Shown: positions 42,001 to 50,591, counted from the first letter of the stretch. The stretch: DNA of 54,383 bases from Candidatus Anstonellales archaeon (GCA_038740615.1 JAVYLQ010000002.1:1-54383); one strand, 5' to 3'. Numbers are program-made.

Positions 42001-45000
42001 ACATACTCATCTAATTCCTGCTCTAGATTATGATGGTAGAATGGATATAGTTGATGCAAAGATGAGTAAGAGCAAGGAGAACAGTGCTATATTTATACAT
42101 GACTCTGAGGAGGAAATACGTAGGAAGATAAATGGGGCCTATTGTCCTCCAAGAGTCCTGGAGAATAATGTTGTATACGAGATACTGAAATGGATTATAA
42201 TTAGAACGGATACAGAGCAATTTACTATACCAAGAGATATGAAATATGGAGGGGATATAACTCTAACTATGCCTGAGTTTGAGAGATTATATATTGAAGG
42301 TAAGATCCATCCGATGGATTTGAAGAGATTTGTTTCAGATAGTTTGATAAGAATGCTCGAACCTGCTAGAAAATTAACTGAACAGAAAATGGATCTGGTA
42401 AATTTTGTAAAATTATCTAGAACTAGATAAAGGTTTTAAAAACTATTATAATTTTTTAATTAACATGCACGTACACCAAATAAGAGCAGATGTATTCATA
42501 AGAAAACTTGCTGATCGATTGAAAAACGAATTACCCAAACCTGAATGGGTTGATTATGTGAAGGCTGGGGTATATGCAGAAAGACCTCCTGAACAGGAGG
42601 ATTTCTGGTGGATCAGGGCTGCGGCCATAATGCGAAAACTCTATTTACATGGAGCTATAGGTGTATCTAGATTGAGAAAAATGTATGGTAAGAGAAAGAA
42701 AAGGGGAGTTAAGCCAGAGCACAAATATCCTGCTGGAGGAAAATTGATTAGAAACATCCTTCAGGGTTTGGAGAGACTAGGATATGTGAGAAAAGTTCAG
42801 AAAGGTAGAGAATTGACTGGCAAGGGAAGAGCTCTATTGGATTCTCTTGCTAAGGAATATGGATCAGGACAATAAACCAAAACAGGAACCCAGGGACAAG
42901 GAAGAAGAGATAAAGAGATTGTTATCAATTGCCCTTACTCCTGAGGCATATACGAGATTGATGAATGTTAGAATTGCCAATCCTGAATTTTTTCAACAGG
43001 CCGCATCTGTTGTGTTACAAATCTTCTCCAGATATGGAAGAAAGGTGGATGAGCAGAGTTTGATAGATATCCTTAGAAAACTCAAGGAAAGATCTGATAG
43101 TAATAAGGGCGGAAACATAATCATACGGAGGAAGTGATAATTTTTTAAAAAGTGTTTAAATAATATAAAAACAGATGGGAATTATCGATATCATAACCAG
43201 AAATTTATTCATGCTGGCTCTAGGTCTGGGAATAGGCCTAGCTATAGCTATTTTGATATACTTCTACAATCTGATATTCAAGAAAGATCAGGCTAAATCC
43301 TTAGATGCAGTTAAAGATGTTATTATAGTTGTTTTCTATCTAGTATTACTATTTGCAATTGATCTTGCATATAATCTATTCCTATCGGCATGGTTAGGTA
43401 TCCCTGTAAGTCCGGGTGATAATCTGAGGATTGCTGAGGCAGTAATCTACAAAGATATCGATAAATTCAGGGAGACTCTGATGTATATATATGTAGCGGA
43501 TTTTGTGATTAATCTCTTTGGATCATTTTCAGCACATTTACATGCAGCAATAAACCCAGAGATGACCAAGTTGCAAGGATTATCCCCCCTAAATAGAGTA
43601 ATGGAAGGTATGACTTCATTATTGGGGAAGGCTAGTTTGGATCCTTACAAGGCAGAGATGGGGATTGATTATTTCTATAAGATGAATTCTGCAATACAAC
43701 TGCTCTACAATGCTTCATATGGTCTGTTCCTAGTTCTTGTATATAAATACATCAAACTCACAGTTATAACCTACTTACCTCTAATCATGTCCATCTTTAT
43801 TCCTCTAGGTCTAGTTCTAATATTCATACCTATTACTAGAAAGGTAGGAATGACTATTGTTGGATTGGCAGTAACACTTTACTATCTCTTCCCAGTGTTT
43901 ATAATATATTCAGACACTGTTCTTAGGAATATGCCCGATTTTGATCACAGATATATTTCAGCGTATATCTCTCCTACTATAGTAGAGTTTTTGGATAAGA
44001 GTTCAGGATCTAATCCTGCCACAAGAGTAGGTTATAAGTACGCATTTATAGAGAGAGAACAGGCAATACAGAGATCTCTGGATTATATATTCTTAGAACA
44101 GGATAGGAGCAACATCATGGAGCCGGATCAGAACAATCCTGTAGGGAAGCTGGAGAAAGAAGGAGTAGGTGTGTTTCATATATATTCATTTGTAGATGCA
44201 CAATCAGTATGTGACCCAGGGACTAATGACAGAGAAGTTTGTAGAGAATATCAAACAGCTAACATTGGTGACTACAGATCGGAGAATGTATTAGCTCCTC
44301 TTGGATCTCTGTATGCAAATACAGTAAAATACTCTGCCATAGTTAGAGTAGGAACTGCTATCAAAGAGGTTATATCCACAGTATCTATAACAGCCTCTCT
44401 AAATCCGTTTGCAGTTGCACTGATAAATATACTTGGAATGGCTATTAATATGTTCCTGTTTGCAATCCAAATAACCCAGGTGTTACCTATCCCTGGATTG
44501 AGCCAAATCCTATATGGAGCTCTAAATATCCCATTCTTACCATTTCTGATGTTTAGAACTGCATTAGAAGCAGCATTGATAGCCTACAAGATAATTATAT
44601 ATGGATCTATTACTATCTTTTTAGATATCTTCCTGATTATCACTGGATATAGGGCAGTAGCATCTATAATAGGAGCTGAGCAGAGAATACTAGGTTTGGA
44701 GAAGGTGCTGTAGAATGTTGTCGATCATAGATAGTTTTGTTGTAGCGTTAGTGATGATAGTTGCTGGGTATATATTGTTACTATTTGTCATGGCTAGACT
44801 TAGTAGTAACGAAGAGTGGAAACAGAATTTCAAGATAGAGTTGCAGCAGCTACTATTGAGCTTGCTATTACTAATAGGTGTATATGCAATAGCAGGTTTT
44901 GTTACTACAATATATCAATACTATACAGGTGGATTGGATGCATTCAACTACCTCTCCATTCAACTAATATCCATAATGAAAAACTTACACTTCTATGCGT

Positions 45001-48000: not shown

Positions 48001-50591
48001 GTATGAACAGTTTTGGTGTTGGTGCTGTAGTAGGTCTATTGTATTTCCTACCAGCTCTGATGTATATAATATTTGGATATTTGCAATTAGCTCTGGTATT
48101 TGCAGTAATACTAGGACCATTAGCTCTGTATTTTACCGTATCATTAACAGGTCAGATAAGTAGAGCTCTTGGTACTGAAATAAATATTGCTGCTCTATCG
48201 AGGTTGATATAAGATGAATATCGAGAAAAATATTGATGCTAATCAGATTCAGATCATGGTCAAGGATATGATCGATAGTATATCTGATACATGTACTGAT
48301 CCGATTAATGATAGATGTATTGATGAGAAACAAACATTGGCTGAATCTTTTGAGGCTCTGAAACCACAGATAGGATTCTTCAGTAAAGCTATAGAGACTG
48401 CCGTAGATAAGATATTTGGTAATCTCTATAGATTAGGAGCAGGTACGAAAATATTCGATGATAAGTACTGCCCCACTGTACAGAATTTAGGATTTGTGAC
48501 AAACTACTTTGGTCTAGCCGTAATACTATTACTATCATATCTCTTTATAGAATTCATAGCTAGGATTCTAAATAACACCAAATACACTGCTCTAGCTAGA
48601 AGGGAGATAATGGAAATTATAATAATCATTCCTCTGCTAATCGCTCTTCTCAATCTACCATGTTTTATATCTATAAATGATAATACACCACTCCATACCA
48701 AATCACTACTGTATATACATTCTGCAATTGTATCTTCTATGATATCCCTGATCCCCCTATCTTATTACGCAGCAACTGTAGGAGCTCATGCTGTTATGAT
48801 AGTGCAGAATCTAGGAGGGGGAGCTCCACAGACATTGCCCCTCTCATATCAATACTATGAATCCTCACTATCCTTGAGCAAACAGGTCGCATCATTCTTA
48901 ACATTATCTTTCATTTGGATAGGGACATTTGCATTCATGTATGACATCTTCACCTATGGATTTGTAAAATACCTATTACCTTTAGCACTTCTACTTAGAT
49001 TCATACCATTCACTAGAAGTCTAGGGGGAGGACTCATAGGATTGATAATAGCTACAAATCTATTCATACCAATTATCCTATCAATCAACTATGAAATCAT
49101 AAAGATGTTTGGGGCAGGATATTTCTATTATAATAATGGTAATGTAACCTTCAAATTCAACCCATGGTTAGAGATGGCTATACATATATTTGGAGCATTC
49201 CTAATCCTAATGAGCTCTCTGTATATATTAACAGGTTTTAGATTGTTTATAGATATACGAAATGTGATAAGCAGATTCAAAATATGGCAGGCTACTAGAG
49301 AAGGAATGAAAAGGATGTTGGCATCTCTGATAGGAGCAGCAGGAGGAGCTGCAGCAACCACCTTAGATCTATTTCTAGCTATGAGAGTGCTGTCTACATC
49401 ATCACTAAGGGTATTTGCATTCCAGATTCCTCTATTAATAATTATAGCAGTTATAATCGTATCTGCTATAATCTTCAATTTACTCCTCCCCACAGTATCA
49501 TTACTCTTCCTCACATCAACAATAAAATACATGTCAGCTATATTTGGAGATGAATTTGATCTTGCTAATCTGACGAGGTTGATATAATGGACGAGTATCA
49601 GGTTGTTGCCATAACCTTCGCACTAATAGGAGTAATAATCGGTATAATCCTCTATCAATTGTCCAAAATATTCAATCTTGGGGGTCTGAAAAGATATTCT
49701 GAGATGTTCATATGGGAAGCAGGAGTTACAGTTCTCTTAGCCCTGTTCCTATTTGTTATGATAGATAGATTAAATAATTTCCTATTCGATATATCTCAAG
49801 AGATGTTCAAAACTATTGGTAAGGATATCTCTGGGGTTAATCCTAAGACACCCATGGCTGCTGCTAGAGTTGTTTTGAATGAATTGATAAATAGTTGTTA
49901 TCTTAGAACATACGGGGCATTGTTGATGGTTCAGGCACTCTTTGAATCTGTTGGAATGTCCATAGCTAGTGTTGGTGCGGAGAATACTAATCTACCTACT
50001 GCAAGCTTAGCCTTTGGAACTATATATATATCAGACCTTCTGAAGATAATGTTTTTCCTGGTTTGGAGCAGTATGGCAATGTTTAAACTCATGGTATTCT
50101 TCTCTGCATACTACCCATTTCTTATAATGCTAGGAATTATACTTAGAGCGTTTGAACCCACCAAATCTCTGGGGGCATACTTGATAAGTCTGGGTATTGG
50201 ATTATATGTAGTTCTGCCAATGAGTTATAATATAGGAATTGTGCTGAATTATAACGATTTACTCTGTTCATTACCTAAGAGAATACAGAGTGATGATACT
50301 CTGGGAATGGGTTATGCAAATGCTTTTGATATAGGAGAGAATTCTAGAAGCTTTGTAGCAGTGTCATCGGTCATCTCTATGTTTGTCTCGATATTCCTAT
50401 TAATAACCAATCCATCTACTCTGGTTAGTTTCATATATTCAATAATGGCTCTATCATTTATAGCTCCTCTGATTGCATTCATATTTGCTCTATCATTCGT
50501 GAATATCTCCACTACTGCACTTGGAGGAAGGATTAGTGAAGTAGGAAGAGGTCTATTTAGATTAGTTTAAATTTATTTATCTCTAAACTAA

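Follow-up and report, generated by a model that had tools for sequence, protein, structure and literature searches.

Six tightly packed genes of an archaeon from the order Anstonellales (Micrarchaeota/Microcaldota, DPANN), here called cassette A, probably constitute a conserved operon of six paralogues encoding VirB6/CedA-like channel subunits of a Ced/Ted-like chromosomal apparatus derived from a type IV secretion system (T4SS). This apparatus would be spread through most of the phylum, its other parts being VirB2-like pilins, a VirB4 divided between two proteins and some accessory proteins; the divided VirB4 would consist of a TM hairpin plus VirB4-N-domain-like protein and a separate CedB/VirB4-like ATPase. 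This tiny archaeal symbiont of hot springs possesses six versions of one unnamed membrane protein, which would form the channel of a conjugation-type machine occurring throughout its phylum.

The window, i.e., the whole 54,383-nt stretch of DNA that was analysed, contains the row of six genes described in the initial annotation; they are six (+)-strand ORFs within 43175-50570, with intergenic spacing of 1, -4, -41, 1 and -1 nt from gene 1 to gene 6:

43175..44713, + strand, cassette A position 1, 512 aa; family HMM E 5e-20
44715..45788, + strand, cassette A position 2, 357 aa; family HMM E 2.5e-70; member chosen for AF2 modelling
45785..46972, + strand, cassette A position 3, 395 aa; family HMM E 3.7e-66
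46932..48212, + strand, cassette A position 4, 426 aa; family HMM E 4.9e-53
48214..49587, + strand, cassette A position 5, 457 aa; family HMM E 1.5e-51
49587..50570, + strand, cassette A position 6, 327 aa, the shortest of the six; family HMM E 3e-44

By hydropathy, all six proteins possess a pair of helices at the N terminus, another in the middle that encloses a core motif and a hydrophobic pair at the C terminus, in agreement with the at least five membrane helices of polytopic TrbL/VirB6 proteins, and their loops are small, with 0-4 Cys in each protein. Position 1 has an insert of ~150 residues with 2 Cys in the variable loop beyond the core motif. Position 2 carries the motif as LPIGIVLRILPITRQFG (residues 172-188), and its orthologues from Anstonellales/Micrarchaeota (55-98% identity) have 'hypothetical protein' as their sole name. 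Position 3 ends with a conserved tail, LGGDVEIAGITRFI, that is kept in 30 position-3 sequences, position 4 begins with a signal-like segment and a Cys-containing extension ahead of the first family helix, and position 5 has a Cys-containing N-terminal extension of ~90 residues. The array is also covered by an independently assembled 43.6-kb contig of another study, which differs from it by 14 substitutions and no indel, and strain variants over the array also show no indels. The flanking genes are housekeeping genes, and pilin and ATPase genes are not adjacent.

These genes had been assigned to a family of twelve copies connected by phmmer and lacking any Pfam or NCBIfam model, and our searches agree on each point. 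The six window proteins match one another at pairwise E 5e-8 to 6e-2, an HMM built from them finds six further genes in the genome (E 9e-12 to 4e-5), and none of the six has a Pfam or NCBIfam model (best E 0.088 and 0.11). With a deep profile of 90 sequences, all 12 genes score E 2.5e-70 to 5e-20, including the six further genes at E 1e-27 to 1e-52. The family has an invariant core, LPxGxxLRxFPxT[RK]xxGG...P, in which R179, G188 and P203 occur in 90/90 aligned sequences, G175 in 86/90, and either R or K at position 185 in 90/90; mean column identity in the family alignments is 13-32%. The invariant residues are located in a short loop joining two membrane helices, outside the ectodomains. The twelve copies make up 3.1% of the genome rather than the 2.5% given previously, since the full ORFs amount to 16.6 kb. 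The earlier figure of 131 clusters for the whole family also proved too low, as a 16-sequence profile retrieves 2805 representatives with a limit of E<=1e-3, and 1436 with the stricter limit of E<=1e-10. Homologues with extra domains include those with CARDB or Big_13, and proteins of 664-1380 aa with 45-106 Cys are encoded by position-3 genes.

The source genome contains two six-gene cassettes. The 'three arrays' of the initial annotation are an assembly artefact, in which contigs C22 and C9 hold the two halves of a single cassette B broken within its third gene. The N part of this gene lies at C22:1-1023 and its C part at C9:17285-18415, the latter being matched by a tail HMM (E 2e-4). Genome G003, of the same genus, has the second array in one uninterrupted piece (884, 334, 881, 386, 388 and 327 aa), followed by a giant protein. 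The members of cassette B found with the family HMM are as follows:

C22: 1-1023; 1020-2045; C-terminal half of 2008-4809
C9: 13992-15023; 14977-16146; 16146-17285

The giant Cys-rich neighbours reported previously are indeed present, with 1369 aa and 47 Cys in one and 933 aa and 22 Cys in the other; the 933-aa protein (B1) has a weak Big_13 match. The three small pilin-like paralogues were also recovered (C21:8249-8575, C21:7921-8259 and C12:8458-8775). Family, pilin-like and ATPase genes are dispersed in this genome.

Orthology of the family genes holds position by position across orders. When the 12 genes of genomes G025 and G027 are compared, the best match of every gene is its counterpart at the same position, and the second-best is in most cases the equivalent position in the other cassette. 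The best matches of the cassette A proteins elsewhere follow the same order: position-1 genes of G025 (E 6e-13) and G027 (E 7e-12) for position 1; position 3 of G025 for position 3 (E 1e-15); position 4 of G027 (E 3e-10), a stand-alone member of G023 (E 1e-9) and position 4 of G025 (E 2e-8) for position 4; position-5 genes (G025 B5, E 1e-10; G027 A5, E 7e-10) for position 5; and position 6 of G027 (E 6e-17) and G025 (E 6e-16) for position 6. Position 2 falls within a position-2 clade (SH-aLRT 95) in a tree of 46 members, which also supports a six-row position-5 clade (96) and a stand-alone clade (98). On this tree the position labels require 13 changes, compared with a mean of 31.6 for shuffled labels, and 0/200 shuffles were as low. 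The expansion formerly described is not peculiar to the 0.54-Mb genome but represents an old cassette of six paralogues, which underwent a single duplication in this order. Since every position persists as an orthologue of its own and duplication affected the cassette as a whole, the paralogues appear not to be interchangeable copies.

Among the 151 sampled genomes of the phylum, the family profile is positive in 135 and the ATPase was found by profile in 134. Each of the 16 family-negative genomes is negative for the ATPase as well, a co-occurrence to be read in the light of the genomes lacking family and ATPase being non-independent kin from just six families of the phylum. In other lineages the family genes are physically clustered with pilin and ATPase genes. 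For example, G123, from another order, has a single cluster with two pilin-like genes (118 and 119 aa), the six family genes in order, two TM plus VirB4-N-domain-like proteins (271 and 277 aa), a 512-aa CedB/VirB4-like ATPase and accessory genes, the family genes being placed between the pilin-like genes and the TM-partner and ATPase genes. G110 has family genes, TM protein and ATPase in the same order on the opposite strand, with no recognised pilin gene; in both genomes the six family genes are directly upstream of the TM-partner and ATPase genes. The context of pilin, family member and VirB4-like ATPase noted before in sister genera was found again in the four stand-alone loci that were read, with stand-alone operons containing pilin and ATPase in G008, G011 and G025. 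By coordinates, 23 of the 39 compared genomes of the order have the single-copy stand-alone member upstream of its ATPase at a distance of <=3 kb; it was not found in the five same-genus genomes with matches (77-88% complete). Family members are distant from the ATPase in families f13 and f14, as in the source genome. Joint coding with VirB4 and a VirB2-type pilin is thus seen in relatives, and the parts are scattered in the source genome.

The partner ATPase is CedB/VirB4-like, the class that characterizes Ced/Ted systems. For 3/3 ATPases the best NCBIfam model is CedB (E 6e-28, 1e-18 and 2e-26, all under the equivalog cut-off); VirB4-like models come next and HerA ranks below them; AAA_10 exceeds its cut-off in 3/3 ATPases of stand-alone operons, and the VirB4 structure 4ag5 is matched at E 9e-11 over residues 63-345. 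The predicted structure of the TM partner has a VirB4-NTD-like fold: the best 12 Foldseek matches listed are all R388 VirB4 or inner-membrane-complex chains (E 8e-4 to 3.5e-2), the next row being at E 0.12, and with VIA residues 87-270 of the model superpose on chain residues 221-374 (Z 9.5). Among seven small proteins tested, four match T4SS_pilin (E 2.4e-4, 0.0016, 0.016 and 0.049, all below the cut-off), and TrbC/VirB2 is matched at E 1e-4, also below the cut-off. The two C21 pilin-like proteins of the source genome match those of G123 at E 2e-9 to 5e-12.

Repeated structure prediction for position 2 gave much the same AF2 model as before (pLDDT 82.2, pTM 0.73), all-helical with helices of 24-69 residues, and the fold ranking was reproduced by an exhaustive VIA comparison. 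The first two of 48,161 chains are DotA (9ngy; Z 8.3, rmsd 8.7, 274 aligned) and TrwI/VirB6 (7o3v_F; Z 8.0, rmsd 7.0, 228/261 aligned), values which, at Z ~8 with rmsd 7-9 Å, are within the chance range for long-helix models. Only these 2 chains reach Z>=8, and rank 3 has Z 6.8; in a second VIA comparison of 821 chains, TrwI ranks first with Z 8.5 and the next chain has 7.2. Foldseek with the same model returned nothing below E 0.08. At the sequence level, TrbL/VirB6 (PF04610) matches 0/6 window proteins (E<=1) and 0/72 homologues (E<=0.01), comparing the family alignment (90 sequences) by hhalign with one of 24 TrwI-clade proteins gives a probability of 0.2% (E 0.29), and PDB sequences searched with the profile yield no match below E 1.4. 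The NCBIfam CedA model (NF041796) has a single match, to 1/4 stand-alone members (E 0.48), and CedA is absent from the 25 NCBIfam families most matched by the 90 members; CedE is matched by 1/90 members (E 0.0034). As a further weak hint, 23% of the proteins in a language-model neighbour cluster (scores 0.89 and 0.91) carry Pfam CedA1. Having no sequence-level match to TrbL/VirB6, we infer homology to VirB6 from other evidence. The VirB6-like reading of the initial annotation, linked to pilins and a VirB4 paralogue, is partly supported and now better than it was, by the G123 cluster, the co-occurrence with the ATPase and the fold rank; membership of TrbL/VirB6 by sequence did not hold.

The main competing explanation, which we regard as unlikely but worth weighing, is a lineage-specific family of envelope scaffolds or adhesin anchors that is not homologous to VirB6 and whose members hold large, often Cys-rich extracellular domains for host attachment or S-layer organisation and share only regulation or neighbourhood with a VirB4-like secretion ATPase. 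Such a role would fit the giant domains, Cys-rich or Ig-like, that some members carry as insertions or fusions, and also the lack of VirB6 or CedA sequence similarity, a fold Z inside the chance range and the distance from the ATPase in the source genome, f13 and f14. However, the invariant residues lie in a short inter-helix loop and not in the ectodomains, the cassette A members themselves have small loops with few Cys, the family genes of G123 and G110 directly precede the TM partner and ATPase, 16/16 genomes without the family lack the ATPase, and both of the best structural matches are T4SS channel proteins.

Membrane domains of ABC-exporter-like or TTYH-like transporters for small molecules or lipids, unrelated to secretion machines, are a far less probable identity. 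They are suggested by the top Foldseek rows (MsbA, McjD and other ABC exporters, E 0.08-1) and by TTYH2 in the second VIA comparison (Z 7.2), but TM-scores are just 0.1-0.2 and rmsd exceeds 25 Å in the ABC-exporter alignments, no ABC ATPase gene adjoins any array that was read, and six conserved, distinct paralogues beside pilin-like genes would be left unexplained. Weaker still is the notion that the copies are similar through hydrophobic composition and are not one family, for which the weak pairwise E-values (to 6e-2) and the low column identity might speak; it is ruled out by the profile and synteny results, i.e., residues invariant in 90/90 sequences, profile E-values to 1e-70 and a six-position order kept across orders, and the independent assembly and strain variants without indels also argue against it.

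Under the preferred reading, a VirB6/CedA-like channel, the six paralogues may assemble as one hetero-oligomeric channel or platform. The short basic loop with the invariant R...T[RK]..G would face the cytoplasm and meet the VirB4-like ATPase, whereas the loop beyond it would face outward and, in cassette B, would bear the giant Cys-rich domains, probably in contact with the host. Pilins would leave the membrane to build a short pilus or conduit. The cargo could be DNA, which is what Ced/Ted carry, or some other material derived from the host. A more specific and rather improbable extension is that the six fixed paralogues form a VirB6-like ring, hetero-hexameric with pseudo-six-fold symmetry like the hexameric VirB4-like ATPase, and that this ring, together with cassette B, is a symbiont-side port for the exchange of cytoplasmic material between Micrarchaeota and their hosts. 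Such a port could be the ~21 nm barrel-like docking structure reported to receive host nanotubes in cryo-tomograms of the ARM-1 Micrarchaeota co-culture (bioRxiv 10.1101/2024.05.20.594898).

The two top structural matches, TrwI/VirB6 of R388 (7o3v; Z 8.0-8.5, 225-228/261 aligned) and DotA of Legionella Dot/Icm (9ngy), resemble the family in being polytopic, with long helices reaching past the membrane, and in being encoded with pilin and VirB4. They differ by the lack of any sequence or profile similarity (PF04610 in 0/78 proteins; hhalign 0.2%), by rmsd of 7-9 Å, and as single-copy subunits in place of six paralogues. Multiple VirB6-class genes in tandem, some with large extra domains, occur in host-dependent bacteria, namely in the rvh system of Rickettsiales and the Trw system of Bartonella, and single Bartonella chromosomes encode several different TrwI proteins. 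The archaeon is likewise a small-genome, host-associated organism with such tandem genes, whereas the bacterial proteins are recognisable TrbL/VirB6 members of outer-membrane bacteria and the family is archaeal, unnamed and arranged in six fixed orthologous positions. Another ultra-small episymbiont lineage, the Patescibacteria, is described as having a near-universal chromosomal T4SS-like system with VirB4, VirB6 and VirB2-like (PF18895) pilins, mostly missing the relaxase and thought to be repurposed for an epibiotic lifestyle (PMC12102498). That system is bacterial, its VirB6 is detectable by standard profiles in many genomes, and it is not reported to include a six-paralogue cassette.

The closest parallels are Ced of Sulfolobales and Ted of Thermoproteales, whose CedA/CedE and TedA are described as archaeal VirB6-like channel proteins, with CedB and CedD matching different parts of the VirB4 NTD (PMC9905601, PMC11868833). 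In common with them, the present set is chromosomal and T4SS-derived, combining a VirB2-like pilin, a polytopic VirB6-like protein and a VirB4-like ATPase, and the pilin gene is directly upstream of the membrane-protein gene. The ATPases of the family operons score best against CedB, the VirB4 N-domain function appears to reside on a separate or variant protein, here a TM protein with a predicted NTD-like fold, and this order has two ATPase paralogues, as in CedB plus CedD. Where Ced/Ted have one or two such proteins, the present set comprises six different paralogues arranged in a fixed sequence, a number doubled to twelve in Anstonellales, as well as a stand-alone one; CedA is not matched by sequence, and some members bear giant Cys-rich ectodomains. 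Ced and Ted belong to free-living crenarchaeons, whereas this organism is a DPANN symbiont in which DNA import is only a possible function. Finally, some weak matches hint that the family membrane protein may carry a pilin-like hairpin at its N terminus, as would be expected of a CedA/TedA-type protein. A pilin-like conjugal transfer protein is the only NCBIfam family matched by more than one member (4/90, best E 9.7e-4), hhalign aligns a pilin-like profile with family positions 22-81 at E 0.0039 with a probability of only 8.5%, and the family HMM matches one pilin-like ORF at E 0.0065 and one pilin-like protein of G123 at E 4.9e-6.

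The genome to which the window (contig C2) belongs (541,905 bases in 31 contigs, 83% complete) carries an array of six ORFs in the window, which has a G+C content of about 35% and contains housekeeping genes of archaeal type (e.g., S19e, RtcB and class I/II tRNA synthetases):

43175-50570, forward strand: six ORFs encoding proteins of 512, 357, 395, 426, 457 and 327 aa

The ORFs are spaced by 1, -4, -41, 1 and -1 nt and thus most likely form a single operon, flanked upstream by the genes for S19e and a PDCD5-like dsDNA-binding protein and downstream by the gene for seryl-tRNA synthetase. 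A contig from an independent assembly of another study covers positions 42400-51900 unbroken, with 14 substitutions and 0 indels relative to the window; no indels were found in strain variants of the array at 90-99% identity, and near-identical array DNA is present in hot-spring metagenome runs from several studies, with no RNA run among the holders listed. The nearest database protein to the second gene product (98% identity) is named 'hypothetical protein [Candidatus Anstonellales archaeon]', and further matches come from 'Candidatus Micrarchaeota'; in the NCBI taxonomy, Anstonellales belong to the phylum Microcaldota, class Micrarchaeia. Elsewhere in the window, an SMC_N/Rad50-like ATPase gene (750 aa, 37697-39949) is flanked by two genes whose products have no Pfam family, a 269-aa polytopic membrane protein (39946-40755, reverse strand) and a 275-aa protein (36873-37700, reverse strand).

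Pairwise phmmer matches among the six proteins are weak but consistent (E 5e-8 to 6e-2). An HMM built from them retrieved exactly six more genes of the genome, on contigs C22 and C9 (E 9e-12 to 4e-5), in agreement with the initial annotation, which had described twelve copies of one divergent family without a Pfam or NCBIfam model. All twelve genes are scored by a profile of 90 homologues (E 2.5e-70 to 5e-20) and share the core motif L-P-x-G-x-x-L-R-x-F-P-x-T-[RK]-x-x-G-G ... P. Numbered by the 357-aa protein, R179, G188 and P203 occur in 90/90 aligned sequences and G175 in 86/90, and either R or K stands at position 185 in 90/90. At the end of most members, a tail of the form LGG[DE]..I.GL.RLI comes after a hydrophobic stretch. 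None of the six window proteins, 72 homologues and 90 alignment members reached a Pfam or NCBIfam family. By these sequence criteria, the six proteins belong to one family. Hydrophobic composition as the sole cause of the likeness is ruled out by the invariant residues, the profile scores and synteny. In the subfamily of the third position (30 aligned sequences), there is almost no variation in the C-terminal tail LSPxLGGDVEIAGLTRLI, which is far more conserved than the rest of the protein.

The arrangement of the family genes was clarified by two well-assembled genomes from other families of the same order, G025 and G027, each of which has two arrays. Array A consists of six family genes with housekeeping flanks. 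Array B likewise has six, of which the third is a giant cysteine-rich fusion, and continues with the gene for a giant cysteine-rich secreted protein. A best-hit comparison of the two genomes demonstrated strict positional orthology, from A1-A1 through A6-A6 and from B1-B1 through B6-B6, the second-best match usually being the equal position of the other array; it follows that a six-gene cassette was duplicated in one piece. For genes 1, 2, 3 and 6 of the window array, the best outside match is the cassette-A gene at the equivalent position in G025 or G027, and for gene 4 it is position 4 of cassette A in G027; gene 5 matches a cassette-B position-5 gene and an A5 gene about equally. The window array is assigned to cassette A on the basis of these matches. 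Cassette B is unbroken in G003, a genome of the same genus (884, 334, 881, 386, 388 and 327 aa, followed by a giant protein), and is represented in the window genome by the following parts:

C22: B1 (933 aa), B2 (341 aa) and the N-terminal 341 aa of B3, cut by the contig end
C9:17285-18415: a 5'-open cysteine-rich ORF at the contig start, ending in the family C-terminal tail (E 2e-4)
C9, next after it: B4, B5, B6 and a 1369-aa protein

The window genome therefore has two six-gene cassettes rather than the three arrays proposed previously, since an assembly gap inside B3 makes C22 and C9 look separate, as judged from the contiguous G003 cassette and the tail match on C9. The ORFs C22:1-1023 and C9:17285-18415 represent the N- and C-terminal parts of one gene, B3 (881-898 aa in same-genus genomes), so that the end of C9 joins the start of C22 with about 0.5 kb missing. 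In the fusion proteins, matches to the family profile cover positions ~10-230 early in the ORF and ~304-352 at its extreme end, and the giant domains are located in the loop after the core motif.

The observation itself proved real, and more general than first described. Of 1.84 billion representative clusters, a 16-sequence profile matched 2805 at E<=1e-3, of which 1436 also reached E<=1e-10, superseding the earlier count of 131 clusters; all named members are annotated as 'hypothetical' or 'CARDB domain-containing' and come from Micrarchaeota or uncultured archaea. The family is present in 30/31 relatives, with 7-20 matches each, and in 135/151 sampled genomes of the phylum (these 151-genome tallies count in one unpublished genome, G054). 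Among the 151 genomes, it was not found in the sampled members of families f16, f20, f22, f23 and f24, nor in most of f17. In a maximum-likelihood tree built from 46 members (four genomes, three cassette types), the labels 'position 1-6 / stand-alone', the latter denoting a single-copy relative outside the cassettes, need 13 changes versus a shuffled mean of 31.6 (0/200 shuffles as low). The position-2 (SH-aLRT 95), six-row position-5 (96) and stand-alone (98) clades each join genomes of different orders, so that the six paralogues predate the split of these orders, the A/B duplication being younger. The rows of the window genome in this tree are long-branched and mostly unresolved, and the positions of its genes were assigned from best-hit scores and gene order.

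The stand-alone members are found in a characteristic operon. In G008, G011 and G025, it encodes a family member of 299-359 aa, a protein with two N-terminal membrane helices (253-265 aa) and an ATPase (477-513 aa); it begins with a small two-helix protein of 81-85 aa in G011 and G025 and ends with a ~230-aa protein in G008 and G011, and only the small protein and the stand-alone member are seen in G023. We compared the coordinates of the stand-alone member and the ATPase in 39 genomes of the order; eight more genomes were omitted for having no relevant ATPase among the 150 matches listed or no stand-alone member found. The member lies within 3 kb upstream of the ATPase on the same strand in 23 of the 39 genomes (G008, G011, G012, G019, G025, G056, G061, G068, G069, G074, G078, G083, G085, G092, G093, G097, G104, G107, G109, G129, G149, G150 and G153), 6.7-42 kb apart on one contig in six (G038, G050, G077, G087, G126 and G143), and on separate contigs in ten (G024, G026, G029, G039, G042, G089, G103, G111, G124 and G161). 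Among ten genomes of families f13 and f14 compared by coordinates, tens of kb separate the member from the single ATPase. In G092, the stand-alone-type ATPase match (C25:53428-54651) lies inside a 1004-aa open frame, which may be a fusion of the membrane-anchored N-domain protein with the ATPase, i.e., an unsplit VirB4-like gene. G153 (C6:10995-14328) and G083 (C20:7653-10981) have, besides the stand-alone operon, a second family member next to another ATPase match, which may reflect a further operon duplication.

All parts are combined in a single cluster in G123, a two-contig genome (96% complete) from family f15 of another order. The cluster encodes, in order, small proteins of 118 and 119 aa, six family proteins, two-helix-plus-domain proteins of 271 and 277 aa and a 512-aa ATPase, and also carries homologues of three more proteins from the ATPase operon of the window genome. 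The best matches of its six family genes are, in order, positions 1, 2, 3, 4/5 (A5 1.6e-30, A4 8e-27), 5 and 6. In G110, four family genes (best matches to positions 1, 3, 4 and 6), one two-helix protein, the ATPase and two operon homologues are arranged as in G123 but on the opposite strand; ORF calling in that cluster is noisy, and a gene for a small protein was not recognised there. G141 and G101 have a similar arrangement judging by coordinates. The stand-alone operons bear out the initial description of a family member between a VirB2-like pilin gene and a VirB4 paralogue in sister genera. At the level of the phylum, the ATPase profile matched 134/151 genomes at E<=1e-60, and 16/16 genomes without the family also lack the ATPase, these absences falling in six families and hence representing few independent events; one genome, G162 (89% complete), has the family and no ATPase match.

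For three of three ATPases tested, the top NCBIfam match is 'DNA import protein CedB' (E 6e-28, 1e-18 and 2e-26), followed by VirB4-like conjugal ATPases (CD1110 family, Mbov_0397 family, TraC and VirB4_CagE), with HerA models lower, all of these NCBIfam matches being under the equivalog cut-offs. The ATPase exceeds the Pfam AAA_10 cut-off, and the structure of the VirB4 C-terminal domain (4ag5) aligns with its residues 63-345 (E 9e-11); the matches are limited to the C-terminal ATPase half of VirB4. An AlphaFold2 model of the two-helix partner (pLDDT 72.2, 8 sequences) was compared with known structures by Foldseek, where the first 12 listed rows are all R388 VirB4 or inner-membrane-complex chains (E 8e-4 to 3.5e-2, probability 0.97-1.00) and the next row has E 0.12 and probability 0.28. 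The exhaustive VIA search with this model gave only helical-hairpin matches (27 chains at Z>=8), the VirB4 match coming from Foldseek and a second VIA look. In the latter, model residues 87-270 align with residues 221-374 of a chain, 753 residues long, in the R388 Stalk-Arches-IMC entry 8rtd (Z 9.5, 144 aligned). This chain is taken to be TrwK/VirB4 because Foldseek rows of TrwK-only entries match the same model, and the aligned residues presumably lie within the VirB4 N-terminal domain. Given the N-domain-like fold of the partner and an ATPase matching the C-terminal half, VirB4 appears to be split here into a membrane-anchored N-domain protein and a separate ATPase. This resembles the Ced system, for which CedB and CedD are described as matching different parts of the VirB4 N-domain (PMC11868833).

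The small proteins have a signal-like start and two hydrophobic helices with a short charged loop between them. Four of the seven tested match Pfam T4SS_pilin under its cut-off (E 2.4e-4, 0.0016, 0.016 and 0.049), and one of these four also matches TrbC/VirB2 under cut-off (E 1e-4, model positions 14-97/98). A PDB sequence search with the pilin-like profile gave nothing under E 1.3.

In the window genome, the parts of the apparatus are dispersed:

C3:13409-19271, reverse strand: five-gene ATPase operon (products of 291, 518, 135, 233 and 786 aa)
C12:8458-8775, reverse strand: third gene for a pilin-like protein, of 105 aa (pilin-like HMM E 4.7e-17)

Within the C3 operon, the 291-aa protein has two membrane helices and a VirB4-N-domain-like fold, the 518-aa protein is the CedB/VirB4-like ATPase, and the 135-, 233- and 786-aa proteins are without known family. 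Relatives share this operon (ATPase matches at E 1e-166 to 1e-180), which is paralogous to the stand-alone operon seen in sister genera. The three small pilin-like paralogues noted earlier were located as a tandem pair on C21 and the single gene on C12. The C21 pair matches the G123 small pair (E 2e-9 to 5e-12) and no Pfam model; each of the three proteins has a Cys early in its mature part and another close to the C-terminus. The C12 gene is solitary, directly after a 768-aa ORF taken as a putative tRNA synthetase. No stand-alone member was found in five same-genus genomes with matches (77-88% complete). Contig C28 encodes a 738-aa protein (568-2784, reverse strand) that matches no Pfam family at E<=0.01 and whose Walker A motif lies at residue ~438, its length and motif position being suggestive of a VirB4-like protein, and, beside it, two secreted repeat-like proteins of 336 and >874 aa (2949-6592, forward strand).

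Within the clusters, the family is the only polytopic membrane protein family among otherwise VirB2-like, VirB4-N-like and VirB4-C-like parts, and its genes directly follow the pilin genes. This is the place of the membrane-protein gene in the Crenarchaeota systems Ced and Ted, where cedA follows cedA1 and tedA follows tedC (PMC9905601). In an exhaustive VIA search of 48,161 chains, only DotA (Z 8.3, rmsd 8.7, 274 aligned) and TrwI/VirB6 (Z 8.0, rmsd 7.0, 228/261 aligned) reached Z>=8, values attainable by chance for long-helix models, with rank 3 at Z 6.8. The two-helix partner model gathered 27 unrelated helical chains at this threshold, so that a list of just two secretion channels is unlike the helical noise for that model. 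In a second VIA look, TrwI had Z 8.5 and the next chain Z 7.2; TTYH2 scored Z 7.2 there. Matches to a pilin-like conjugal-transfer NCBIfam (4/90 members), to CedE (1/90) and, in a language-model neighbour cluster, to Pfam CedA1 (23% of members, scores 0.89 and 0.91) hint at a pilin-like hairpin at the family N-terminus, as described for CedA and VirB6 in PMC9905601; hhalign gave E 0.0039 for this hairpin but a probability of 8.5%.

On the other side, no profile-level likeness to TrbL/VirB6 or CedA was found. An hhalign comparison with the TrwI clade was negative, its narrow alignment (52-77% identity to the first row) making this a weak test; a PDB sequence search with the family profile returned one row, an agglutinin at E 1.4; and Foldseek of the family model gave nothing under E 0.08. 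An ABC-exporter fold was rejected, having TM-scores of only 0.1-0.2 in the Foldseek rows. The VirB6-like reading of the initial annotation is partly supported, by fold rank and by the pilin/VirB4 context, and finds no echo in profile or Foldseek comparisons. The family probably works as a VirB6-type channel component, and its descent from VirB6 is somewhat less certain; we infer homology to VirB6/CedA from context and fold rank, not from sequence.

Hydropathy, charge and the Cys-containing extensions at the N-termini of positions 4 and 5 suggest a topology in which the N-terminus would lie on the outer side, followed by a first helix pair linked by a short basic cytoplasmic turn, an outer loop of 40-115 residues and a second helix pair linked by the invariant basic core loop on the cytoplasmic side. 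The next, variable outer loop would be the insertion site of the giant cysteine-rich parts in cassette B, and the protein would finish at its C-terminus with a hydrophobic hairpin, or else a long helix, and the conserved tail. Because the positions have separate orthologues in fixed order and the cassette was copied in one piece, all six may sit in one complex rather than being interchangeable variants; a ring of six could fit a hexameric VirB4-like ATPase. Cassette B, which has ectodomains of Ig-like and Cys-rich type, might be a version specialised for touching another cell. In the G123 cluster, which was read individually and not as part of a systematic search, there is no assignable relaxase gene.

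The gene set is best filed as a new form of the archaeal T4SS-like systems, Ced and Ted being the nearest known systems and bacterial VirB6 and DotA the structural references, and it would extend such systems from Crenarchaeota to DPANN archaea. Its new elements are the unnamed family, the fixed six-paralogue cassette and its duplication, the split VirB4 and a near-universal presence in a DPANN phylum; literature searches, with most subscription journals outside their coverage, found no published description. Tandem VirB6 multiplication occurs in Rickettsiales and Bartonella, with several TrwI proteins per Bartonella chromosome, and is the closest analogy for the copy number here, where in this order twelve paralogues occupy 3% of a 0.54-Mb genome; we propose a natural case of heteromeric VirB6-type assembly. 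Roughly 20 'hypothetical' genes per genome would gain names and testable roles. DPANN archaea rely on hosts for most building blocks; a Ced/Ted-like gene set with a channel part diversified into six fixed paralogues would be a conserved candidate, in most of the phylum, for the machine carrying material across the symbiont membrane. The T4SS of Patescibacteria offers an ecological parallel (PMC12102498). The gene set would provide concrete targets for proteomics and cryo-ET in existing Micrarchaeota co-cultures. In one such co-culture, the symbiont envelope is reported to bear an unidentified barrel-like structure of ~21 nm on which host-derived nanotubes dock (bioRxiv 10.1101/2024.05.20.594898), and we speculate that this structure may be linked to the present gene set.
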